Source: an uncultured Bacteroides sp.
GTDB lineage: Bacteria > Bacteroidota > Bacteroidia > Bacteroidales > GCA-2748055
Assembly (NCBI GenBank): GCA_964575865.1
Contig: CAZNSZ010000007.1
Span: forward strand, 18,931 to 82,930
Length of the DNA stretch: 64,000 bases
Direction: 5' to 3'
Shown: positions 17,308-63,233 of the stretch, one piece after another
Numbering within the stretch: the first letter of the stretch is position 1
How the letters are laid out: the number at the start of each line of letters is the position of its first letter
Position numbers and translations under genes: made by a program
The notes under the pieces: generated by a model
The model's input: the letters and a program-made list of their open reading frames with translations, nothing else
What the model was told of the DNA's origin: nothing
Databases searched by the model: none

Positions 17308-20300
17308 TGCATATGGACAGGATGCTGCGCGGATGCTCTATTCTTCTTTTATTTTTCCTTGGATGTCATGATGCCGTCGGCCAGATCCGCGGGGAATGGA
17401 CCGATTCGCTTGTGGCCGTTGAGACCAGGCGGGTGGCCGATTCGCTGCTGAACAGTGACTGGTTCAGCCGGATGACCGGGTATCAGAAAGCCGACAGTAC
17501 AGAGATCGACACGGTCCTGGTGTTCCATAAATCGGAGCAGATCCGGATCCGGGCCGACGAACAGCTGGCATTTGCACCCGTGAGGAGGAGTCTGCTGGAC
17601 AGCCTTGAGGGGGCAGTGTGCGCGGGGCTGGGGGAGCCTTACCGTGCATACAGCGTGGTGGTCTTCAGCGGCAACAGGGACCTCAGGGATTTGATCCCCA
17701 ACGCGTTCCGTGATAATCAAAGGGAGATCGACAGCGACCGTTCACCGGGAAGGCTGAAGAGGAAATCACCTCCCCTGGTGAGGAACCTCTCCAGGGAATT
17801 CCTTCCCGACGCCGCTCTCTATCACATGAACATCGCCCTCTGGCACAGCCACGGATGGTATTACGAACCGAAACTGAACAGGTGGGAATGGCAGCGGGCC
17901 AGGATCTTCCAGACCGTGGAGGATATCTATCCCATGTCCTATACCCTTCCCTTTCTGATCCCGATGCTTGAAAATGCCGGCGCCACCGTGCTGGTTCCCA
18001 GGGAAAGGGACTGGCAGGTCAATGAGGTGGTGGTCGATAACAATGGCAGCCACGGGAACAGCATATTCCTGGCGGCCGGAGAAGTGAAGCAGGGGCCGGA
18101 CAGTTCCGGTTTCGCTCTCGGCGAACCCCCTTATGTGGAAGAGAATCCGTTCAGGATCGGGACGTACCTGGAGATGGATTCGGACCGGCAGGGAAGCAGT
18201 ACCGTGCAGTACATTCCCGATATTCCCGACGATGGCGAATATGCGGTATATATCTCCTACCATGCCTCGCCCGATAATGCGGACGAAGTCATTTACACCG
18301 TTTACCATGACGGGGGAGTGACCGAATTTGCTGTCAACCAGCAGATGGGGGGAGGGACCTGGGTGTACCTGGGAAGATTCCGGTTCGGCAGCGGGCTCGA
18401 TCCCGAAAAGGGCAAGGTGGTGGTCTCCAACCGCTACGGCAGCTGGCGGCCGAAACGCATCACCACCGACGCCGTCCGTTTCGGGGGGGGCATGGGCAAC
18501 ATTGCACGGAACGGGATGACCAGTCTCCGTCCGCGGTACCAGGAGGCCGCGCGGTACAGCATGCAGTACGCCGGATTCCCGGACTCCCTTGTCTGGAAGC
18601 TCAATCCTGAAAATGACTACAACGATGATTACCAGTCCCGTGGCGAATGGGTCAATTACCTCATGGGGGCCCCCAGGGGACCGGCGGCGGACAGGAACGC
18701 TGCCGGGCTGGGGATCCCGGTGGACCTGTCCCTCGGATTCCATACCGATGCGGGCATTACCGGTAACGACACGGTAATCGGTACCCTGGGGATCTACAGC
18801 ACCAACCGGGACCGCGGGGTATTTCCCGGCGGGCTCTCCAGGATGGCCTCCCGTGACCTGACCGACCTGGTCCAGTCACAGATCGTGGAAGACCTCAGGA
18901 GCCTATATGATCCCGCCTGGACCCGTCGCGCCATGTGGGACCGGGGGTACAGCGAAGCCTACCGCCCCAATACCCCTGCCATGCTGCTGGAACTCTTCTC
19001 TCACCAGAACTTTATCGACATGCGGTTCGGACAGGAGCCCATGTTCCGCTTCCATGTCAGCCGGGCCATCTACAAGGGCATGCTCCGGTTCCTGGATGCA
19101 TTTTACGGTACCGGTTATGTGGTGCAGCCGCTGCCGGTGGGCCATCTCACGGGCACCATCCTTGATAAGGGGGAGATCTCCCTCAGCTGGCGTCCTGTGG
19201 CTGATCCGCTGGAGCCCACTGCAGTTGCCGGTTCATACCGGGTCTACACGCGGGTAAACGGCGGGGGGTACGACAACGGCACCCCGGTGACCGGGCCCCG
19301 TTTCGTGCTGGAGGCTCCCCATCCCGATTCGGTCTATTCCTTCAGGGTGACCGCGGTCAACGGAGGGGGGGAGAGCTTCCCTTCCGAAGAGGTTTCCGTC
19401 TGCATCGCGTCGGAGGGATCGGGGACCGTATTGATCGTGAACGCCTTTGACCGCGTATCCGGGCCCGCCTGGTTCGACGATACCGGGCATGCCGGATTCC
19501 TGGACATGGTCGATCAGGGGGTCCCCTTCGGCATGGATCTCCATACGGTGGGATCGCAGTTCGATTTCAGGAAAGATTCCCCCTGGCTGGACGATGATTC
19601 TCCCGGACACGGGGCATCCTACGCCGACATGGAGCCCTTTATCATCCCCGGCAACAGCTTCGATTTCAGCCGGATCCATGGAAATTCCATCCTGCAGGCG
19701 GGGTATTCCTTCGTCACGGTAAGCGATGAGGCGGTCCTGGACAGCCTGGTGGAACTTTCCGCATATGAGGTGGTGGATTACCTGGCCGGGGAGGAGCGGA
19801 CCACCTTCCTGCCAAAGAACGACTCGGTTCCCCTTTATGCGGTCTTTCCCGGCAGGATGCTGTTCCTGCTGGAGGATTACCTGGAAGGTGGCGGGAGTCT
19901 TTTTCTGTCAGGGGCCCACGTGGCCACCGATGTGCACCTTCAGGGACAGGATTCGCTGGCAGCTTCGGTGCTCGGGTACCGGTGGCGGACCAGCAATGCC
20001 TCACGAACCGGCTCCTTTTACTTCATGGACGGGCAGTTTGCAGCCCGGGGTGACCGGTTCCTGTTCAATACCGGGTACGATCCCGTGATCTACACCGTGG
20101 AAGGGGCCGATGCACTTGAACCGGCGGACTCTTCCGCATTTACACTGATCAGGTATTCCGAAAACAACATGAGTGCCGGGGTGGCCCGGACGGGCAATGG
20201 CCGGGTGGTCTCCATGGGATTTCCGTTCGAGGCGGTCAGGGACCAGGGATCCCGCGACCTGATCATGCGCAGGACACTGGAGTTTTTAACCAACCGCAAA

Positions 20301-49378: not shown

Positions 49379-49392
49379 TGCAATCGGTTGCA
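49379..49392. promoter_or_regulatory. LacI-type operator TGCAATCGGTTGCA upstream of susC
   Basis: Near-palindrome with central CG, identical to 53165-53178; abuts a TAACTTTA -7-like box (49393-49400, minus strand). Confidence 0.8.
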
Positions 49393-53164: not shown

Positions 53165-53178
53165 TGCAATCGGTTGCA
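53165..53178. promoter_or_regulatory. LacI-type operator TGCAATCGGTTGCA between the divergent DUF6807 operon and lacI
   Basis: Identical to 49379-49392; 12 nt upstream of a TATATTTG box. Confidence 0.8.
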
Positions 53179-53190
53179 AATAATAATCTT

Positions 53191-53198
53191 TATATTTG
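53191..53198 (+). promoter_or_regulatory. -7 promoter box (TATATTTG) of the LacI-family gene
   Basis: Exact TAnnTTTG match 44 nt upstream of ATG 53243. Confidence 0.7.
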
Positions 53199-53242
53199 AA
53201 ATTCACAATCCGTTTGACAGCCCTTGCACCACCCTTCCGACC

Positions 53243-54295
53243 ATGACCCATAAAAAGGAAGTGACCATTTACGATATCGCCGAGGCACTGAAAATTTCGG
53301 CTTCAACCGTCAGCCGGGGCCTCAGGGACCATCCTGCCCTCCGCAGGGAGACGGTCCGGCGGATCAAGGAAGTGGCCAGGGAAATGGGTTATCAGCAGAA
53401 CGCTTTCGCCAGCAACCTGCGGAGCAACCGTTCCAATACCATCGGTGTGATTCTTCCGAGGCTGGACAGCAATTTCCAGTCCTCGGTGGTGGCCGGCATC
53501 GAAAAAAAGGTGAACCAGCATGGGTACAACCTGATCATCAGCCAGTCGCGGGAAAGCAAGGCGAAGGAAAACGCCAACATCGACACCATGTTCAACAGCA
53601 GGGTGGACGGACTGCTGGTTTCGCTGGCGTGCGATACCTGCGACCTTTCCCACTTCAACAACATGCTGCGCAAGGGGATCCCGGTGGTGCTCTTCGACAG
53701 GGTCAAGGAGCATCCCGATTACAGTTGTTCACGGGTGGTGATCGACAATGTGAAAGCCGGCCGCGATGCAGTGGCCCATCTGCTGGATGAAGGATGCTGC
53801 CGGATCATGTACGTGGGGGATAACCTGACAGGCAGTGTATATGCCGACCGGCACCGGGGGTACATGGAAGCCCTTGCGGAAAGGAAGATCCCCTATGATC
53901 CGGACCTCTCTTACATCACACCCCTGGATGAAAGGTCCGGTGAAAGGGTGGTGGAGCGGATCCGGGAACTGGATGCCCTCCCGGATGGCATCTTCGCCGC
54001 CAATGACACCTCGGCCGTTTCGATCATCTGCGAGCTGAAGCAGAACGGGTACAGGGTCCCGGAGGATGTGGCCGTGGTGGGATTCAACGATGTGCATATT
54101 GCCCGGGTGATCGATCCCCCCCTGACCACCATCCGGTATCCCGGGGAGGAGATGGGAGAAGTGGCCGCCACCACACTGATCGAGATCCTCACCGGCGGCG
54201 AGGCGGTGACCAGGAAGACCGTGGTGCTGGACCACCAGCTGGTGGTCCGTAAGTCATCCATGAAGCACCTGAATGAACCGCATGCGGTCTCCTGA
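53243..54295 (+). CDS. LacI family transcriptional regulator
   Basis: VTIYDIAEALKISASTVSRGL HTH; sugar-binding domain with VVGFND. Start moved to ATG 53243. Confidence 0.95.
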   Translation: MTHKKEVTIYDIAEALKISASTVSRGLRDHPALRRETVRRIKEVAREMGYQQNAFASNLRSNRSNTIGVILPRLDSNFQSSVVAGIEKKVNQHGYNLIISQSRESKAKENANIDTMFNSRVDGLLVSLACDTCDLSHFNNMLRKGIPVVLFDRVKEHPDYSCSRVVIDNVKAGRDAVAHLLDEGCCRIMYVGDNLTGSVYADRHRGYMEALAERKIPYDPDLSYITPLDERSGERVVERIRELDALPDGIFAANDTSAVSIICELKQNGYRVPEDVAVVGFNDVHIARVIDPPLTTIRYPGEEMGEVAATTLIEILTGGEAVTRKTVVLDHQLVVRKSSMKHLNEPHAVS

Positions 54296-54335: not shown

Positions 54336-55343
54336 ATGATGGATCATCATCTCCCTTTCCATCCGATCCTGATGCATTTTGCAGCCAGATATGCCGGATA
54401 CAGCTACGGTGCATTTGCCGCTGACCACCGGGTACTGGTGGAGAGCAACCTGCGATGCCAGGAAGCCTTCGGCCTTGATGCGGTGGGCCTCATCTCCGAT
54501 CCATACCGGGAGACCGCCGCCTTCGGCGCCCGGATCACCTTCCCGGAGGAGGCAGTCCCCCGTTGCCACGGTCCCGTCGTCAGAAACATGGAGGATCTGA
54601 AGGGATTGAAAAATCCCGACGTGTACAGGGCAGAACGCACCCGGGACCGGATCCTGGCGGGAAAAGCGCTGCGAAAAGCGGCGGATCCCTCCATCCCCGT
54701 GATCGGCTGGATCGAGGGCCCGCTGGCCGAATCGTGCAACCTGGCCGGCGTCAACGAGGTGCTGCTCCGGCTCTACATGGATCCCGGTTTTGTCCGTATG
54801 CTGATCGACAGGGTGATGGTCACTGCAAAGGAGTTCGCCAGGGCACAGGTGGAAGCCGGGTGCGGGATCATCGGGGTAGGGGATGCCATCTGCTCACAGA
54901 TCTCCGCAGAGAATTACCGTGAGTTTGTCCGCGAGAAGCACCGGGAACTCTTCGGATATATCCACTCCCTGGGGGCCAGGGTGAAACTGCATATCTGCGG
55001 GAACATCACCCACCTGCTGGAGGAACTGCCTTACTCAGGGCCGGATATCGTAGACCTGGACTGGATGGTGGATATGGATAAAGCCAGGGAGTTACTGGGT
55101 CCGGGGATCACCAGGTGCGGCAACCTGGATCCTGTGGGAGTCATCCAGGAGAAAAAGCAGGAGGAGGTCTATGCGGCGACCAGGGGGCTGTGCGAGCGCG
55201 AGGAGGGACGGGATTTCATTCTGTCGGGAGGGTGCGAGATCACCGTGAACACGCCCCCCGGCCACCTGCGGGCCATGCGTGATGCCTCCCTTTCAGGCGG
55301 CGCCGAATCCGGCCGAAAACAAGCCAATCACTCATTTAAATGA
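54336..55343 (+). CDS. Uroporphyrinogen decarboxylase / MtaA-CmuA superfamily protein
   Basis: PVIGWIEGPLA, KLHICGN, CGNLDPV, ILSGGCEI. Start uncertain (54273 or 54336). Confidence 0.8.
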   Translation: MMDHHLPFHPILMHFAARYAGYSYGAFAADHRVLVESNLRCQEAFGLDAVGLISDPYRETAAFGARITFPEEAVPRCHGPVVRNMEDLKGLKNPDVYRAERTRDRILAGKALRKAADPSIPVIGWIEGPLAESCNLAGVNEVLLRLYMDPGFVRMLIDRVMVTAKEFARAQVEAGCGIIGVGDAICSQISAENYREFVREKHRELFGYIHSLGARVKLHICGNITHLLEELPYSGPDIVDLDWMVDMDKARELLGPGITRCGNLDPVGVIQEKKQEEVYAATRGLCEREEGRDFILSGGCEITVNTPPGHLRAMRDASLSGGAESGRKQANHSFK

Positions 55344-56113
55344 AACATCCTATGAGACCTTACATGCTTACAGAATCCTACTGGCCGGAGGTCAGGGAAC
55401 GTGACTACCGGCTGGCCGTGCTGCCCTGGGGAGCCACAGAGGCCCATAACCTGCACCTTCCTTACGGCACCGACAATTTCGAAACCGATGCCCTGGTGCA
55501 GGAGGCCGCACGGATGGCATGGGAACGCGGTGCGGGAGTGATCGTGCTTCCCACCATCCCCGTCGGGGTCAATACCGGCCAGCACGATATCAGGCTGACC
55601 CTCAATTTTCACCCCTCCACACAGCAGGCGATCCTGGAGGACCTGGCCGAAAGCCTGGACAACCACGGGATCGACAAGCTGCTGGTGGTGAACGGGCACG
55701 GAGGAAACGATTTCAGGCAGATGATCAGGGAGGTGGGGAGCCACTTTCCGGACCTGCTCATCGCCACCTGCAACTGGTTCCAGTCGGTGGACAAGACGGC
55801 AATCTTCGAGAACGGGGGGGACCATGCCGATGAGATGGAGACCAGCCTGATGATGTTTGCCCATCCCGAAAAGGTGAAACCGCCGGAGACGGCAGGAGAA
55901 GGCAGGTCCAAACGGTTCAGTGTGGAGGCGCTCAATGAATCATGGGCCTGGACCGAGCGGAAATGGAGCCGGACCACCGCGGACACCGGGATCGGTAACC
56001 CGAGAAAAGCCACCCGCGAGAAGGGGGAGCGCTATTTCAGCGAGGTTACCAAAAAGCTTGCTGACCTCATGACCGGCCTGGCGGCCACCGACGCGTCTGA
56101 CCTGTACCGGTAA
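55340..56113 (+). CDS. Creatininase family amidohydrolase
   Basis: LPWGATEAHNLHLPYGTD, NGHGGN, HADEMETS, GIGNP. Confidence 0.9.
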   Translation: MKHPMRPYMLTESYWPEVRERDYRLAVLPWGATEAHNLHLPYGTDNFETDALVQEAARMAWERGAGVIVLPTIPVGVNTGQHDIRLTLNFHPSTQQAILEDLAESLDNHGIDKLLVVNGHGGNDFRQMIREVGSHFPDLLIATCNWFQSVDKTAIFENGGDHADEMETSLMMFAHPEKVKPPETAGEGRSKRFSVEALNESWAWTERKWSRTTADTGIGNPRKATREKGERYFSEVTKKLADLMTGLAATDASDLYR

Positions 56114-56136: not shown

Positions 56137-56189
56137 TTCTAAAGGGATAATTCTTCAATTTGGTGACGGAACCCACCCGGTCGAACCAG

Positions 56190-56747
56190 ATGGCACTCAC
56201 CCGGAGAACATTCATCAGGACAGGGATGGCAGGCTTCGGCAGCCTGCTCCTGATGCCTTCCTGCTTCAGACAGGAACGGTCACCCTACCTTTTTTTCACG
56301 CCCGCCGAAGCGGCCTGCCTGATCCCGCTCTGCGAGCAGATCATTCCGGCCGATGACCATGGCGGAGGGGCCACCGAGGCAGGTGTCATCCATTACATCG
56401 ACCGGCAGCTGCTGGCGGTTTTTGATTATGACCAGGTGGTCTACCAGCGCGGCATCGATGCCCTGCAGGCCACCTGCCTGGAACGTTTCGGAAGGAGGTA
56501 TGAACAGCTGGATGCGGAAAGCCAGCTCCGGCTTGCCGAACAGATGGACACGGGCACCATCGGGGGGGAAGGCTGGGAGGGAACGGATCCCCGGCGTTTC
56601 TTCGGGCTGGTCAGGGACCACACCATGCAGGGCTTTTACGGGCCGCCCCGGCACGGGGGGAACCGGGACTATATGAGCTACCGGATGATGGACCTGGATT
56701 TTCCGCTGGTGGTGGGACGCAACCATTACCAACACCTCACACCCTGA
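56190..56747 (+). CDS. Gluconate-2-dehydrogenase subunit 3 family (Tat small subunit)
   Basis: LTRRTFI; IIPADD.GGGA.EAGV..YIDRQL; HTMQGFYG..RHGGNRD. Confidence 0.88.
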   Translation: MALTRRTFIRTGMAGFGSLLLMPSCFRQERSPYLFFTPAEAACLIPLCEQIIPADDHGGGATEAGVIHYIDRQLLAVFDYDQVVYQRGIDALQATCLERFGRRYEQLDAESQLRLAEQMDTGTIGGEGWEGTDPRRFFGLVRDHTMQGFYGPPRHGGNRDYMSYRMMDLDFPLVVGRNHYQHLTP

Positions 56748-56750
56748 ACC

Positions 56751-58406
56751 ATGGCGGCACAACATGTCAACGCAGTGATCGTAGGCGCCGGTGCAGGCGG
56801 GGGGGTGGTGGCCAAGGAGCTGGCCACCAACGGCCTGTCGGTTGTGCTCCTGGAACGGGGCGGATGGCCGGACTATGACAGGCACATCAACGATGAGCTG
56901 ATCTCGCAGCGGACCCAGGTGCTCGGTTCCGCATTCGGACCCGACCACAGGCTGCACCCCCGCGTCCGCATATACGGAGAAGGGAACCGGCAGGTGGTGA
57001 CCCCCATCCGGGGGGACTACGGCCACAATGCAGCGTGCGTGGGTTCCGGAACGGTCAGCTACGGGGCCATGGCGTGGCGCTTCATGCCGGAAGATTTCAG
57101 GATGAAATCCACCTATGGCCACGTGGAGGGATCCACCCTGGAGGACTGGCCCATTTCCTATGAGGAACTGGAACCCTATTATGAACAGGCCGAATGGGAA
57201 ATCGGGGTTGCCGGGGAGGCCCGGGACAATCCCTTTGCAGCACCCAGGGAAAGGGAGTATCCCATGCCCGCGTTCGAGAACAACAAGGAGGGAAAGGTGC
57301 TGGCAGCCGCCTGCAGAAGGCTCGGACTGCACCCTTTCCCCATTCCCATGCTCCGCAACTCGGTCCCCTACAATGGAAGGCCCGCCTGTATCAGGAACAG
57401 GACCTGCGTGGGATATGCCTGCCCGGTGGACGGAAAGAACGGAACCCACAACACGGTGATCCCCGTGGCCATGGCCACAGGCAACTGTGAGGTCAGGGTG
57501 CACTGCCAGGTGGCCGAGGTGATGAGCAACGACCGGGGCAGGGTGACCGGGGTAAGGTACTTCGATGAAAACAACCGGGAGCAGGTCCAGACCGCCGACC
57601 TGGTGGTGCTGGCCGCCTCCGCCACGGAGACTGCCAGGCTGCTGCTGAACTCCACCAGCAAATTGTTCCCCAACGGGCTGGGGAACAACCATGACTGGGT
57701 GGGGCGCAACCTCCAGGGCCATGCCTATACCGGCGCTCACGGGCTCTTCGATCATGAGGTCACTGACTATGCGGGACCGGGGGCCACCTTCGGGTTCTGC
57801 GACTACAACCACCACAACGAAGGGATTATCGGCGGCGGCCTTCTCTGCAATGAATTCAACGCGCTTCCCTACCTCTTTACCGGGATCAGGCCCCCTGGAG
57901 CGGCAAGGTGGGGCAGGGAGCACAAGGATTTCCAGATGCGGAACATCAAACGGATCGCGGCCCTCCACGGGCCCATCCAGGAGATGCCCAACTTTGAGGC
58001 CCGTGTCACGGTCGACCCCACGGTGAAGGACCACTGGGGAATCCCCGTGGCGGCGCTCTCCGGTGAGCGCCATGCCCTGGACCGGGTGCACTGCCAGTGG
58101 CTTTCGGAGCGTGCCGAGGAGGTGATCAGGGAAGCGGGAGCGGTAAAAACCTGGCTCAGTGTGGGGGGAAGGGGTCTCAGCGGGGGTCAGCATCAGTGCG
58201 GAACAGCCAGGATGGGTGATGATCCCCGTACCTCGGTGACCAACCGCTACGGACAGGTCCATGACATCGACAACCTCTTTGTGGCAGACGGCAGTGTTTT
58301 TGTGACCGGCGGAGGATTCAATCCGGTGCTGACCATCATGGCCGTTGCCTACCGCACCGGGGCCTACATCAACAGCACCTGGAAGGGAACCCGCTTAAAA
58401 TCCTGA
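56751..58406 (+). CDS. GMC family FAD oxidoreductase large subunit
   Basis: VIVGAGAGGG, VGSGTVSYGA, HQCGTARMG, NLFVADGS, FNPVLT; no signal peptide. Confidence 0.92.
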   Translation: MAAQHVNAVIVGAGAGGGVVAKELATNGLSVVLLERGGWPDYDRHINDELISQRTQVLGSAFGPDHRLHPRVRIYGEGNRQVVTPIRGDYGHNAACVGSGTVSYGAMAWRFMPEDFRMKSTYGHVEGSTLEDWPISYEELEPYYEQAEWEIGVAGEARDNPFAAPREREYPMPAFENNKEGKVLAAACRRLGLHPFPIPMLRNSVPYNGRPACIRNRTCVGYACPVDGKNGTHNTVIPVAMATGNCEVRVHCQVAEVMSNDRGRVTGVRYFDENNREQVQTADLVVLAASATETARLLLNSTSKLFPNGLGNNHDWVGRNLQGHAYTGAHGLFDHEVTDYAGPGATFGFCDYNHHNEGIIGGGLLCNEFNALPYLFTGIRPPGAARWGREHKDFQMRNIKRIAALHGPIQEMPNFEARVTVDPTVKDHWGIPVAALSGERHALDRVHCQWLSERAEEVIREAGAVKTWLSVGGRGLSGGQHQCGTARMGDDPRTSVTNRYGQVHDIDNLFVADGSVFVTGGGFNPVLTIMAVAYRTGAYINSTWKGTRLKS

Positions 58407-59467
58407 TGCGATCCATGAAGAAACGAAAGGGCATACTCCTCCTGATCACCATCCCGGTTCTGGCCGTTATCCTGCTGACGGGGTACGCAGGATGGAATGC
58501 GGCCAACCCGGAGCGGACCTGTGCCTCCTGCCATGAGATCGTTCCATCCATGGAGCTGTGGCAGCAATCGGCCCACCGGGAGGTCAGTTGCGCGGACTGC
58601 CACGGAACCGCCCTTTCCAACGGATTCCACAGCCTCAGGGAGAAAGCCGGGATGCTTTTCGGTCATTTCGGGAGAAGGCAGGATGCCGCTCCCGTCCGGC
58701 TGGACGAGGCCGGGGTGCTGGAGGTGATGGAAGCGTGCGTGGAGTGCCACATGGAAGAGTACCGGAGCTGGCTCTCAGGGGGGCATTCGGCCACCTATGC
58801 CGACATCTTTCTGAATGAAGCGCACAACCGCAAGGAGCAGCTGTACCCGGACTGCTTCCGGTGCCACGGGATGTATTACGGGGGCACCATCGGGGAGCTG
58901 GTACAGCCCATTTCCACAGCGGGCCCATGGACCATGACGGAGCGTGCAATGGAATCCCGGGCGGTGATCCCCTGCCTGGCCTGTCATCCCATCCATATGG
59001 AAAACCGGTTGCGGGGCAGGGCCGGATCCCTGGACGATCCCGGTGCCATCTTCTATGAACGGGAGGAAAGGGACCCCCTGATGGGGCTCTACCTGAGATC
59101 GGACCGGATGCACCTGAGGGCCGACATGCTGCCCAAGCCCGACATGTTCCGGCAGGGCGAGGCGGTCCATGTATCGGATGACCCGGCACAGCGGCTATGT
59201 GTTCAATGCCATGCCCCCAACTGGGCCCATGAGGCGGGTACAGAGGATGACCGGACGCCCGTTGGGGTCCATGAGGGTCTCAGCTGCCTGGCCTGTCACC
59301 AGGGTCATTCCAATGATCCCAGGGGCTCCTGTGCCCGCTGTCACCCTGCCCTCTCCAACTGTGGCCTGGATGTGGAGACCATGAACACCACGTATGCCAA
59401 ACGGGAGAGTCCCCACGATATTCATTTTGTAGCCTGCACAGATTGCCACGATCCGGTACCGGAATGA
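58406..59467 (+). CDS. Membrane-anchored multiheme cytochrome c (9 CxxCH)
   Basis: CASCH, CADCH, CVECH, CFRCH, CLACH, CVQCH, CLACH, CARCH, CTDCH; N-terminal TM helix. Confidence 0.9.
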   Translation: MRSMKKRKGILLLITIPVLAVILLTGYAGWNAANPERTCASCHEIVPSMELWQQSAHREVSCADCHGTALSNGFHSLREKAGMLFGHFGRRQDAAPVRLDEAGVLEVMEACVECHMEEYRSWLSGGHSATYADIFLNEAHNRKEQLYPDCFRCHGMYYGGTIGELVQPISTAGPWTMTERAMESRAVIPCLACHPIHMENRLRGRAGSLDDPGAIFYEREERDPLMGLYLRSDRMHLRADMLPKPDMFRQGEAVHVSDDPAQRLCVQCHAPNWAHEAGTEDDRTPVGVHEGLSCLACHQGHSNDPRGSCARCHPALSNCGLDVETMNTTYAKRESPHDIHFVACTDCHDPVPE

Positions 59468-59485: not shown

Positions 59486-60769
59486 ATGAAACGACGACAG
59501 TTTCTCAACCAGTCGGCCGGCCTTGCCCTGGGAACCCTTGGAGGACCGGGGCTCTATCAGGAGACGAACGCTGCGGAACAAAGGGAAAGGACCAACCCGA
59601 TGCGTAACCGGGAACCCTTTCCGCTGGCCATCACCATGTGGGAATTCTCCTGGCTGGAGCGGAGATGGCCCGGAGCGGGGTATGAGGATTGGGACCGGGC
59701 GCTCACGGAGCTCACAGAGCGGGGATACGATGCGGTCCGCATCGATGCCTTCCCGCACCTGATCAGCCACGATCCCGAAAAAGAGTACCTGTTGCTGCCC
59801 CACTGGAGCGTGCAGGACTGGGGGAGCCCGGCCATTAACCGGGTCCGGGTCCAGCCCCACCTTAACCGGTTCCTCGAACGGTGCAGGGCACACGGTATCA
59901 AAGCGGGGCTCTCTTCCTGGTTCCGGCAGGACGAAGAGGACCTGCGCATGAAGCTGGACACTCCCGAAAAGCTGGGAGCGGCATGGCTGGCCGTCCTGGA
60001 TTCCATCCGGGAGGGCGGGGTGCTGGATGCGGTCTGCTATGTGGATCTTTGCAATGAATGGACGGGGCCGGCCTGGTGTCCTTTCTTTGTCAACGATCCG
60101 CCGGAAGCGGTATGGACGGGATGGGACACTGCGAAATCAAAGCAGTGGATGGAACGCGCCATTGCCGTCATCAAAGAGAAATACCCGGAGATTCCCGCCA
60201 CCTTCTCCTTCACGGGGGAGGTCACCCCGGACACCCCGGGCAAGGGGCCGTTCCCCATGCTGGATTTCCTGGAGCCGCACATCTGGATGTCCGCTTCCAA
60301 CGGGGATGAGTACTACCGGGAGGTGGGCTATACCTACGACAGGTTCGAACTGGAGAGTTACAGGAACCTGGCCCTCAAGGGAAAAGGGGTGTATGAGAAC
60401 CGCAAAGCATACTGGCAGGAGGGATTGAAGCGGCAGATCCGCCTGGCGGCAGAATGGTCGGAAAAGCTGAACACCGGACTGGTCACCACCGAATGCTGGG
60501 GGGTGGTTGATTTCAAGGACGGACCGCTGCTGGACTGGGGGTATGTGAAGGAGCTGTGTGCACTGGGCACGGAGGAGGCTGCCGGAACGGGAAGATGGAT
60601 CGCTCTGGCCACCAGTAATTTCTGTGGTCCCCAGTTCGTCGGGATGTGGCGGGATGTGGAATGGCACAGGAGATTAACGGATACCATCCACCGGGCCACG
60701 CTGGCCCCTGACCTGATGGCCTCACCGCTGGTGAGGCGGCTGGCCGGTACAGGGGCCTATTCGCGATAA
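59486..60769 (+). CDS. Tat-exported cellulase-like (clan GH-A) protein
   Basis: MKRRQFL; DLCNEW and LVTTECWG as putative acid/base and nucleophile. Confidence 0.7.
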   Translation: MKRRQFLNQSAGLALGTLGGPGLYQETNAAEQRERTNPMRNREPFPLAITMWEFSWLERRWPGAGYEDWDRALTELTERGYDAVRIDAFPHLISHDPEKEYLLLPHWSVQDWGSPAINRVRVQPHLNRFLERCRAHGIKAGLSSWFRQDEEDLRMKLDTPEKLGAAWLAVLDSIREGGVLDAVCYVDLCNEWTGPAWCPFFVNDPPEAVWTGWDTAKSKQWMERAIAVIKEKYPEIPATFSFTGEVTPDTPGKGPFPMLDFLEPHIWMSASNGDEYYREVGYTYDRFELESYRNLALKGKGVYENRKAYWQEGLKRQIRLAAEWSEKLNTGLVTTECWGVVDFKDGPLLDWGYVKELCALGTEEAAGTGRWIALATSNFCGPQFVGMWRDVEWHRRLTDTIHRATLAPDLMASPLVRRLAGTGAYSR

Positions 60770-60911: not shown

Positions 60912-63233
60912 ATGAATTTTAGATCAGAAGTCGAAAAGGCGTTTTTCCATCTTTCCGGTTCTCCTGAACCAACCACCCGCATCCCTTATATTGTGGTGGA
61001 TAATTTCCCACTGCTGGGATTGATGACCTCGCTGCGTTTCCTTGAATGGGCAGGAGAGAATCCGGAGGGGGTGATCAGCCTGCCCACCGGCAAGACCCCT
61101 GAATATTTCATCAAGTGGACCGGGTACCTGCTGGAGAACTGGGAAGGAAAGAAGGTCAAAGAACTGAGAAGCAAATACGGGATCGGAGGCATGGCCAAAC
61201 CGAGCCTTAAAAAGCTGCAGTTCGTGCAGATCGATGAATTCTATCCCATCAGCTCCAAGCAGCACAACAGTTTCTTTAACTATGTCAGAAAATATTATAT
61301 CGGAGGTTTCGGACTCGATCCGAAAAAATCCCTGCTGATCAATTCCGATGAGATCCGGCTGGAAGGGGGAATGCATTTTAAGGAGGTCTTTCCTGAGAGC
61401 AGGGTCGACCTTTCACTGCGTTACCGGGAACCCAAGAGCCAGTTCGAGCGGATCCAGCAGCAGTCCATCTTTGCTATCGACGACTGGTGCACCGAATACG
61501 AGCAGCAGGTAAGGGAGAAAGGCGGGATTGGCTTCTTCCTGGGAGGGATAGGCCCCGACGGGCACATCGCCTTCAATACCCGGGGCTCGGACCACTACTC
61601 CACCACAAGGCTCACCGAAACCAACTTTGAAACCCAGGCGGTTGCAGCCTCCGACCTGGGGGGGATCGAGATCTCACGCAACCGGCTGGTGATCACCATC
61701 GGGCTGGAGACCATCACCCATAACCCGGAGGCCGTCGCCCTGATCTTTGCTGCGGGTGAAGCCAAGGCCCCCATGGTGCGCGACGCGCTGGAGCAGGAGC
61801 CCTCCAACCTCTATCCGGCCAGTGTGCTGGGCAAGCTGCCCAATGCACGTTTCTACCTCACCACGGGAGCTGCTTCCATGCTGCAGGCTTCCGTGGACGC
61901 ATTTTACAAGCACGGCGACTGGTCCCAGGATAAGACCGACCGGGCGGTCATCGACCTCTGCGTAAAGCTGCAGAAATACGGACACCACCTGACCCTGGCC
62001 GACCTGAGGGATGACCGCTACTGCCGGATGATCCCCGGGCTGGGGGAGGAGACCGTCTCCTCGGTGATCGAATCCACCGTCGGAAAATTCCAGAAAGGGA
62101 TGTTCGCCGAACAGAACCAGGTCTACTACCATACCGGTCCCCACCACGACGACATTATGCTGGGCCTCAATCCGCATATCCACAGGCTGATGAGGAACGA
62201 AACCAATTCCAATTACTTTTCTGTTCTCACGTCAGGATTTACCGCGGTGACCAATAAGTTCGTCATCGATGCCCTGGAAGATACCCGGCATTTCCTGGAT
62301 GCGGGGCTCATCTCCATGACCCGCTACCCCGATTTTTTTGAAAAGGGATACCTCTACAAGCGGGACAAGGACGTGAACCACTACCTGCTGAAGGTAGCTT
62401 CCGGAGAGCATTACGAACTGCGCAGGGGACTGGCCCACCGGCTGGTCAGGGACATAGTGGGCCTCTACAAGGTGAAGAGCATCGAGCAGCTCAGGGACCG
62501 GATCAACACCATCCTTCACATACTGAACGACAGCTATGACGGGGAGATCAACACCCCCGACATACAGAAGCTGAAGGGGATGATCCGGGAGTTCGAAGAA
62601 GAGCTGGTGTGGGCCTGTTTCGGGATCCAGACCAAAAACGTGCACCACCTCCGCCTGGGATTCTATACGGGCGATATCTTTACGGAACAGCCCAAAAGGG
62701 ACCGGGACGTGGCGCCGATCCTGGAGAATCTGAGGGAGATCAAGCCCACGGTGGTGAGCCTGGCCTTCGATCCCGAGGGAAGCGGGCCGGATACACACTA
62801 CAAGGTGCTGCAGGTGATCGCAGAAGCGCTGCGGATGTGGAGCCAGGAGGAGGACCTCTCCAAACTCCGCATCTGGGGGTACCGGAACGTATGGTACCGT
62901 TTCCATCCGGCGGAGGCCAATCGCATCGTTCCGGTATCGCTGAATGCCATGGGGGTGATGGACAATGCGTTCACGTACAGCTATCTGAGCCAGGTGGACG
63001 CCTCATTCCCCAGCTACCAGCATGACGGGAAATTCTCCGACCTCACACAGCGGATATGGGTGGAACAGCTGAAGACAGTGCAGCTGCTGCTGGGAAAAAA
63101 TTATTTCTACCAGAACGACAGCCCGCGGGTCCGCACGACCCATGGCCTGCTCTTTTTCAAGGAGATGAACCTGGAAGAGTTCCTCGGGCACGCCAGGGAA
63201 CTGGAAAAATCCATGGAGGGCGTGGTCTTTTGA
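60912..63233 (+). CDS. nagB: Long-form glucosamine-6-phosphate deaminase fused to a PIG-L/LmbE-like domain
   Basis: LPTGKTP, QIDEFYP, GGIGPDGHIAFN; C-terminal PHHDDIMLG and PDTHYK. Confidence 0.8.
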   Translation: MNFRSEVEKAFFHLSGSPEPTTRIPYIVVDNFPLLGLMTSLRFLEWAGENPEGVISLPTGKTPEYFIKWTGYLLENWEGKKVKELRSKYGIGGMAKPSLKKLQFVQIDEFYPISSKQHNSFFNYVRKYYIGGFGLDPKKSLLINSDEIRLEGGMHFKEVFPESRVDLSLRYREPKSQFERIQQQSIFAIDDWCTEYEQQVREKGGIGFFLGGIGPDGHIAFNTRGSDHYSTTRLTETNFETQAVAASDLGGIEISRNRLVITIGLETITHNPEAVALIFAAGEAKAPMVRDALEQEPSNLYPASVLGKLPNARFYLTTGAASMLQASVDAFYKHGDWSQDKTDRAVIDLCVKLQKYGHHLTLADLRDDRYCRMIPGLGEETVSSVIESTVGKFQKGMFAEQNQVYYHTGPHHDDIMLGLNPHIHRLMRNETNSNYFSVLTSGFTAVTNKFVIDALEDTRHFLDAGLISMTRYPDFFEKGYLYKRDKDVNHYLLKVASGEHYELRRGLAHRLVRDIVGLYKVKSIEQLRDRINTILHILNDSYDGEINTPDIQKLKGMIREFEEELVWACFGIQTKNVHHLRLGFYTGDIFTEQPKRDRDVAPILENLREIKPTVVSLAFDPEGSGPDTHYKVLQVIAEALRMWSQEEDLSKLRIWGYRNVWYRFHPAEANRIVPVSLNAMGVMDNAFTYSYLSQVDASFPSYQHDGKFSDLTQRIWVEQLKTVQLLLGKNYFYQNDSPRVRTTHGLLFFKEMNLEEFLGHARELEKSMEGVVF

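Follow-up and report, generated by a model that had tools for sequence, protein, structure and literature searches.

What would a protein with the URO-D fold do in a carbohydrate-type operon, next to a gene for a creatininase-family hydrolase and without any corrinoid gene in reach? The question is raised by a 64,000-nucleotide stretch from an uncultured Bacteroides sp. (assembly GCA_964575865.1, contig CAZNSZ010000007.1, forward-strand positions 18,931 to 82,930), which is called the window below and whose contig is C7 in our naming of the contigs of this genome. Three of its genes are at the centre of the analysis:

54336..55343, plus strand: URO-D-fold protein, MtaA/CmuA-like; 335 amino acids; Pfam URO-D, 1.3e-55
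55340..56113, plus strand: creatininase-family metal hydrolase; 257 amino acids; Pfam Creatininase, 5.7e-59
60912..63233, plus strand: NagB-like/LmbE-like fusion; 773 amino acids; NCBIfam PRK02122 'glucosamine-6-phosphate deaminase-like', 2.6e-57

With modest confidence, we propose that the URO-D-fold protein is a substrate:corrinoid methyltransferase (MT1) which demethylates an N-acylated, amino-sugar-like compound and which is served in trans by genes on another contig of the same genome, C55. Carrying this proposal are the fold, a predicted zinc triad, the ruling out of HemE, corrinoid genes encoded in trans, corrinoid-linked relatives and fusion proteins, and a fixed set of neighbouring genes; the methyl transfer itself, its direction and the class of the substrate are what we infer.

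The URO-D-fold protein scores 189 bits against Pfam PF01208 (URO-D; cut-off 23.9), the match starting from profile position 29 at residue 11. A first-pass annotation of this DNA had pointed out an HxC motif (KLHICG) and a distal Cys (GGCEI), and both can be read in the sequence, with the His codon at 54990-54992, the first Cys codon at 54996-54998 and the distal one at 55233-55235; together they form a predicted zinc triad of the type H-x-C...C (H219/C221/C300). The same annotation had likened this arrangement to the zinc ligands of MtaA, and rightly so, as the three residues align pairwise with LHICGN and GC of Methanosarcina mazei MtaA (4ay7). All 118 close homologs retain the triad, as do 74-76 of the 79 representatives of distant clusters. 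An AlphaFold (AF2) model with a predicted local distance difference test (pLDDT) score of 95.7 has MtaA 4ay7 as its top PDB match (TM score 0.87, root-mean-square deviation 2.2 Å), HemE structures reach about 0.83, and MetE-type zinc barrels stand lower among the fold matches. The best NCBIfam match is mtaA_cmuA (TIGR01463), at 124.2 bits. Judged by its sequence and the predicted structure, the protein is MtaA-like, not HemE, and it belongs to a divergent branch outside the curated TIGR01463 subfamily. The MtaA/CmuA family includes MT1 as well as MT2 enzymes (PMC8630106; PMC10418091).

A methyltransferase of this kind calls for a corrinoid partner. The first-pass annotation had seen neither a corrinoid protein nor an activator in the window, and a domain search extends this to the whole contig, on which no B12-binding domain was found. 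Its description of the gene as an orphan is thus valid for the window and fails for the genome: a genome search for corrinoid partners, which it had suggested, located both corrinoid protein and activator on C55 (L024:7167-14532). Here, a RACo-type activator, a 222-amino-acid stand-alone corrinoid protein, a divergent AraC regulator, FTHFS, a pterin-binding methyltransferase and MTHFR are encoded together. RACo occupies C55:7167-8657 and the corrinoid protein C55:8661-9329, both on the minus strand. The pterin-binding enzyme is recognised as a methyl-tetrahydrofolate:corrinoid methyltransferase (264.4 bits; cut-off 259), and no substrate methyltransferase adjoins the set. Corrinoid protein, RACo and pterin methyltransferase each occur in one stand-alone copy in the genome, which also encodes a stand-alone homocysteine S-methyltransferase on C91 and a MetH-activation-domain-like protein on C10. 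Given that the genome search found no members of the MttB or MtaB families, recognisable MT1 candidates in this genome come from the URO-D family alone. All four components (MT1 candidates, corrinoid protein, pterin-binding MT2 and activator) are therefore encoded, not in one operon, with the MT1 candidate of the window on C7 and the remainder on C55. The unit of AraC regulator, corrinoid protein and RACo is kept in five of five related genomes tested, at 82-86% identity of the carrier; one of them, the congener G541, has no URO-D gene and still keeps corrinoid protein and RACo.

The genome contains seven other URO-D-family matches, eight counting the window gene, and the four strongest of the seven, the only ones scanned, do not reach the hemE cut-off. 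As a side observation, contig C72 (L027:77-9862) carries two convergent URO-D-like paralogs of about 410 amino acids with H-x-C...H in place of H-x-C...C. These come after genes for GH92 plus a GDSL esterase, DUF5005/DUF4185, an MFS transporter and a ROK kinase, and they may represent a second 'spoke' in a mannoside-type locus.

Corrinoid linkage becomes directly visible among the relatives of the URO-D-fold protein. Reference genomes seldom carry the gene (of those sampled, 3 of 301 for the phylum and 18 of 401 for the order); in metagenomes it is common. A scan of genome contigs yielded only four loci. The metagenome scan was run with a narrow alignment (A2), the 70 sequences of a first one (A1) being too diverse a set for it, and several neighbours in the related loci owe their names to their similarity to annotated genes. 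A maximum-likelihood tree places the protein of the window in a 5-row clade (support 99) whose sister is an 11-row clade (99) with the corrinoid-adjacent genes L022, L045 and L048, and the enclosing 20-row clade (100) includes the corrinoid-adjacent L049. The scan covered 80 metagenome loci, of which 26 hold relatives at 54-65% identity that are flanked on both sides; a corrinoid protein lies within 3 kb in 12 of these 26, the sister clades with this arrangement standing at 54-59% identity. Those 12 loci also feature a MetH-type activation domain (seven), a homocysteine S-methyltransferase (five) or a second URO-D paralog (ten), and two of them, L159 and L160, display the same set of AraC regulator, corrinoid protein, pterin methyltransferase and MTHFR as C55. 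Two more distant representatives are fused to a corrinoid-binding domain, one C-terminally (P0209, 585 amino acids) and one N-terminally (P0238, 571 amino acids). Across the order sample, a corrinoid protein is present in 16 of 18 genomes with the gene, compared to 66 of the 383 genomes that lack the gene; kinship among the genomes means that they are not independent, and this co-occurrence is only supportive.

The related loci also bear on the direction of transfer. At L022, the URO-D protein is the sole methyltransferase beside the corrinoid protein, and elsewhere the evident methyl-acceptor enzymes come from other families, namely homocysteine S-methyltransferases or pterin-binding methyltransferases, which speaks for a function of the URO-D protein on the donor side (MT1). 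In sister-clade clusters (L150, L165, L178, L183, L187 and L049:9445-14127), a URO-D gene, a corrinoid protein, a second URO-D gene with a thioredoxin-like tail, a homocysteine S-methyltransferase and a MetH activation domain occur together; these clusters resemble a methionine synthase in separate parts that receives methyl groups from several donor enzymes.

What the substrate might be is best approached through the genes that travel with the URO-D gene. In the window, these include:

53243..54295, plus strand: LacI-family regulator; Pfam LacI and Peripla_BP_3; ATG at 53243
56160..59467, plus strand: Gluconate_2-dh3 small subunit, GMC flavoprotein and multi-haem cytochrome; Pfam
59486..60769, plus strand: PF12876 'sugar-binding cellulase-like' protein; Pfam, 1.7e-139

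The pairing of URO-D and creatininase genes, already noticed in the first-pass annotation, is fixed in the window's clade: the creatininase gene follows directly downstream in 20 of 20 clade loci with enough sequence (at least 66% identity), and the clade consists of uncultured Bacteroidales. NagB-LmbE comes directly after the creatininase gene in L112, L115, L120 and L131. In the alternative order, the unit of Gluconate_2-dh3, GMC and multi-haem genes follows, with or without the PF12876 gene, and NagB-LmbE comes next where the contig extends. The dehydrogenase unit, which is periplasmic, includes a nine-heme cytochrome and sits between the creatininase and NagB-LmbE genes in the window, is present in seven and absent in four of 12 clade loci with enough downstream sequence; in the twelfth, L122, the PF12876 gene comes next after the creatininase gene. 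The PF12876 gene is found only in some related loci. The regular unit is therefore URO-D, creatininase-family and NagB-LmbE, and the dehydrogenase is an optional insert.

Upstream of the unit, lacI is found only in L017, L110, L117 and L134 among the related loci. Most clade loci carry a gene for a peptidase S58 (DmpA-like) at this place instead (L015:8032-9922; L115:4529-7971; L118:1521-5835), often preceded by Asp/Glu/hydantoin racemase, asparagine-synthase-like and weak radical-SAM-like genes. No peptidase S58 homolog was found in the genome of the window, where lacI takes that position. Given that peptidase and racemase genes stand just upstream in most relatives, an amide- or amino-acid-bearing, amino-sugar-like substrate is indicated.

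The creatininase-family partner fits into its family by fold and by its conserved residues, and yet into none of its named branches. It scores 199.9 bits against Pfam Creatininase (cut-off 31.3), its nearest solved structure is 3LUB, a 'putative creatinine amidohydrolase' (E 1e-66), and it is itself far from true creatininase. E34, H36, D45, H120, H162, E165 and E167 are invariant in 33 homologs, and the protein is hence probably an active metal hydrolase; the first four are presumably the metal ligands, as in Pseudomonas creatininase. Compared with the creatininase family at large (PF02633: creatininase, MftE, IolN), the fold is shared and these four ligand positions are retained, whereas position 122 is Gly in 33 of 33 homologs and the partner protein, of the 3LUB-like subfamily, stays far below threshold for every equivalog model. 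True creatininase (TIGR04448; 65.4 bits, cut-off 235), MftE (72 against 172 bits) and IolN (32 against 245 bits) were accordingly rejected as identities of the partner, which a protein atlas labels 'creatininase family' only. In the order, 50 of 401 genomes encode a member of the 3LUB-like subfamily, in most cases with no such URO-D gene, and its neighbours vary, among them GH31, GH2, GH3 and sensor kinase genes. This distribution rules out a general coupling of creatininase and URO-D genes and restricts the coupling to one clade.

How might these proteins act together? Neither the URO-D-fold nor the creatininase-family protein has a signal peptide by eye, and both should therefore be cytoplasmic. 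We envisage that a methylated, N-acylated, amino-sugar-like compound would be imported and met in the cytoplasm by the zinc-containing URO-D-fold MT1, which would pass the methyl group to the Co(I) form of the stand-alone corrinoid protein of C55. The adjacent RACo would re-reduce the carrier to keep it active, while the neighbouring pterin-binding methyltransferase, which MTHFR and FTHFS adjoin, would unload it onto tetrahydrofolate; alternatively, the stand-alone homocysteine methyltransferase could transfer the group to homocysteine. The same compound would lose its amide-linked substituents and its amino group through the creatininase-family hydrolase and NagB-LmbE. In MtaB, zinc polarises methanol, and one may speculate that the zinc of the URO-D-fold protein could polarise the ether oxygen in a similar manner. 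The inositol pathway includes IolN, a ring hydrolase from the creatininase family, and conjugates of N-acetylglucosamine (GlcNAc) and inositol are typical substrates of LmbE enzymes. From the family names alone, O-methyl derivatives of GlcNAc or glucosamine and O-methyl inositols or inosamines are candidate substrates.

The first-pass annotation had offered, as a guess and one example of a decoration stripped ahead of uxuBA or nagB, the 4-O-methyl of glucuronate. This link was rejected: in related loci, uxuAB does not stay beside the module, and neither do SusC/D, DUF6807 and the Tat GFO gene of the window. The carbohydrate context that it had assumed stands, as carbohydrate loci are usual for the wider clade. 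For example, L049 adjoins araA and a sodium:solute symporter, and L045 (1163-15148) lies in a polysaccharide utilisation locus (PUL) of the alpha-glucan type, in the order LacI, SusC, SusD, SusE, GH31, URO-D, corrinoid protein, URO-D (thioredoxin-like), activation domain and GH13. Since a complete URO-D/corrinoid set is thus enclosed by the GH31 and GH13 genes, L045 hints at a methylated alpha-glucan as substrate in that locus.

Several findings weigh against our proposal. The window's protein does not reach the TIGR01463 cut-off (124.2 against 235.4 bits), and its clade lacks 15-18 N-terminal residues (window 54336-54380, alignment A2) that all corrinoid-adjacent proteins of the sister clades carry. 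In the window's own clade (66% identity or more), none of 27 loci has a corrinoid gene close by, and a dependence on corrinoid would here hinge on proteins encoded in trans. In the congener G541 (L101, C3:84600-104500), asparagine-synthase-like, radical-SAM-like, creatininase-family and NagB-LmbE genes stand in a row, the creatininase gene adjoining NagB-LmbE, with neither a URO-D gene nor the GMC dehydrogenase unit. The chemistry is demanding too: characterised H-x-C...C zinc sites activate a thiol acceptor, as in the MT2 role of MtaA, and not an ether donor, and as leaving groups, aliphatic methyl ethers of sugars are harder than what the family is known to use, namely aryl ethers, halides and thioethers. 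Finally, no CAZyme (carbohydrate-active enzyme) of the locus indicates a methylated sugar, and no inner-membrane importer was found in the operon. The case of G541 has a second side: because this genome keeps the other module genes without the URO-D gene, it is consistent with a URO-D protein that is an accessory and takes off a decoration.

Some of these points would be accommodated if the clade protein were a corrinoid-independent zinc enzyme with a URO-D/MetE-like barrel, for example a direct alkyl transferase, a decarboxylase or an enzyme of hydrolase-like type, working chemically with the creatininase-family protein. We consider this unlikely. The 27 clade loci without a corrinoid gene, the loss of the N-terminal segment together with the new and fixed partnership, and the MetE-type barrels among the lower fold matches speak for such an enzyme. 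Against it stand the corrinoid linkage of both the nearest sister clades and the fusion proteins, and the retention of corrinoid protein and RACo in all five related genomes, although G541 keeps these two even though it lacks the URO-D gene. In addition, we know of no corrinoid-independent member with the H-x-C...C triad, which we count against this alternative.

Slightly less likely again is an MT2-type activity like that of MtaA, in which the methyl group would move from a methylated corrinoid protein to a zinc-activated thiol or selenol acceptor arising in the pathway, or a bifunctional activity on a methylthio compound as in MtsA. The alignment of the H-x-C...C triad with that of MtaA speaks for such a role, given that the zinc of the MtaA triad activates coenzyme M (studies cited in PMC10418091). 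Related clusters with two to four URO-D paralogs and a corrinoid protein also resemble the mlp clusters, for which a role in methyl-sulfur or methyl-selenide metabolism has been proposed (PMC10418091). However, an acceptor-side function is at odds with L022, where the URO-D protein is the lone methyltransferase beside the corrinoid protein, and with the different families of the evident acceptor enzymes in the other loci; moreover, methylation of a thiol makes little sense in an operon which is otherwise catabolic-looking.

That the protein is the true uroporphyrinogen decarboxylase HemE of haem synthesis has practically no chance, despite the Pfam name of the fold and HemE structures close behind MtaA: it scores 88.3 bits against a cut-off of 302.95 (TIGR01464), the N-terminal substrate-binding segment (the first ~28 profile positions) is missing throughout its clade, tobacco HemE carries other residues at the aligned His/Cys/Cys positions, and E. 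coli HemE, the outgroup of the tree, groups only with two other long-branch paralogs of this genome. The comparison with HemE which the first-pass annotation had called for is thereby decided by profile scores, triad, N-terminus and tree alike.

If the URO-D-fold protein is an MT1 of the kind proposed, it would differ from known systems in several respects. With MtaA, MtbA, MtsA and CmuA (TIGR01463; M. mazei MtaA 4ay7), it shares the (beta/alpha)8 fold of URO-D and the His-x-Cys...Cys triad, and its relatives likewise adjoin or are fused to corrinoid-binding proteins. In contrast to that family, it has only ~22% identity and scores under the family's hidden Markov model cut-off, it is bacterial, expected in the cytoplasm and encoded in a carbohydrate-type operon without coenzyme M, its likely role is that of MT1 on the donor side rather than MT2, and its corrinoid protein is encoded on another contig. 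The same logic, in which an MT1, a corrinoid protein and an MT2 acting on a folate-type carrier are combined with an activator that depends on ATP, is found in the O-demethylases MtvABC of Moorella, OdmABCD of Acetobacterium and MtoABCD of Methermicoccus (PMC8630106). These, however, use aryl methyl ethers and have clustered genes, and their MT1s MtvB, OdmB and VdmB are only distant relatives, whereas the MT1 candidates described here are spread over sugar loci, with a single corrinoid gene set at the centre. The proposed role, removal of a methyl ether that blocks sugar catabolism by the product of a gene in a glycan utilisation locus, is shared with the P450 carbohydrate demethylases of marine Bacteroidota, which act on 6-O-methyl-D-galactose (PMC6292453). 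The proteins are unrelated, and the P450 enzyme is an O2-dependent monooxygenase releasing formaldehyde, in contrast to the proposed oxygen-free methyl transfer to cobalt. These oxygen-dependent P450 enzymes are the only carbohydrate demethylases we found described (PMC6292453). Our literature search turned up nothing about a demethylation of sugars that depends on a corrinoid, about a gene cluster of URO-D and creatininase, or about creatininase-family genes in PULs.

We therefore put forward, tentatively and as a possibility somewhat further removed than the MT1 assignment itself, that Bacteroidota perform an oxygen-free, B12-dependent demethylation of carbohydrates, amino sugars or cyclitols, in which a central carrier-activator-folate unit would serve several MtaA-like enzymes, each specific for its substrate and encoded in a different glycan locus, and which in this clade would form a new three-enzyme pathway with a creatininase-type hydrolase and NagB-LmbE, directed at a methylated, N-acylated, amino-sugar-like nutrient. 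Many sugars of plants, algae and microbes carry methyl ethers that block their breakdown. Such a pathway, if true, would explain the use of methylated glycans by sediment and gut Bacteroidota, tie glycan degradation to the demand for vitamin B12 and to one-carbon and methionine metabolism, and assign a function to the many genes that now bear the annotation 'uroporphyrinogen decarboxylase'. New in this respect are the in-trans corrinoid set, the clade-specific triad with creatininase and NagB-LmbE genes, the S58 and racemase neighbours and the fusion proteins. The fixed triad of URO-D, 3LUB-like creatininase-family protein and NagB-LmbE is also a defined three-enzyme set that can be tested jointly.

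Regarding the layout of the operon, the overlap reported in the first-pass annotation is correct: the TGA stop of the URO-D gene (55341-55343) and the ATG of the creatininase gene (55340-55342) share an ATGA at 55340-55343. The open reading frame finder also gives a longer URO-D frame from 54273; this start is unsupported, as all close homologs begin at the Met of 54336/54339. Between lacI and the URO-D gene lies a gap of 41 nucleotides, and a scan for sigma-70 promoters and terminators yielded only one terminator-like hairpin at the lacI stop, which is weak and not above chance. The short gap and the lack of a strong terminator make co-transcription of lacI and the URO-D gene plausible.

A possible control element is located upstream of lacI:

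53165..53178, no strand: operator-like 14-bp palindrome upstream of lacI; second exact copy at 49379-49392

The palindrome TGCAATCGGTTGCA thus occurs in two exact copies within the window, compared to 0.44 matches expected by chance. The -7 promoter box of Bacteroidota is TAnnTTTG. At about 53192-53199, 13 nucleotides past the palindrome, stands TATATTTG, which we take to fit this box, and the 41-nucleotide gap before the URO-D gene holds only an imperfect version, TATCTTGG.

At the other end of the operon, just past the window end (C7:83769-84389), a gene of the 3-keto-disaccharide-hydrolase family (PF06439) is located downstream of NagB-LmbE in convergent orientation. A PF06439 gene likewise follows NagB-LmbE convergently in several related loci (e.g. 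L115:12257-13057), and in some of the related loci it is adjoined by a GFO/IDH/MocA gene.

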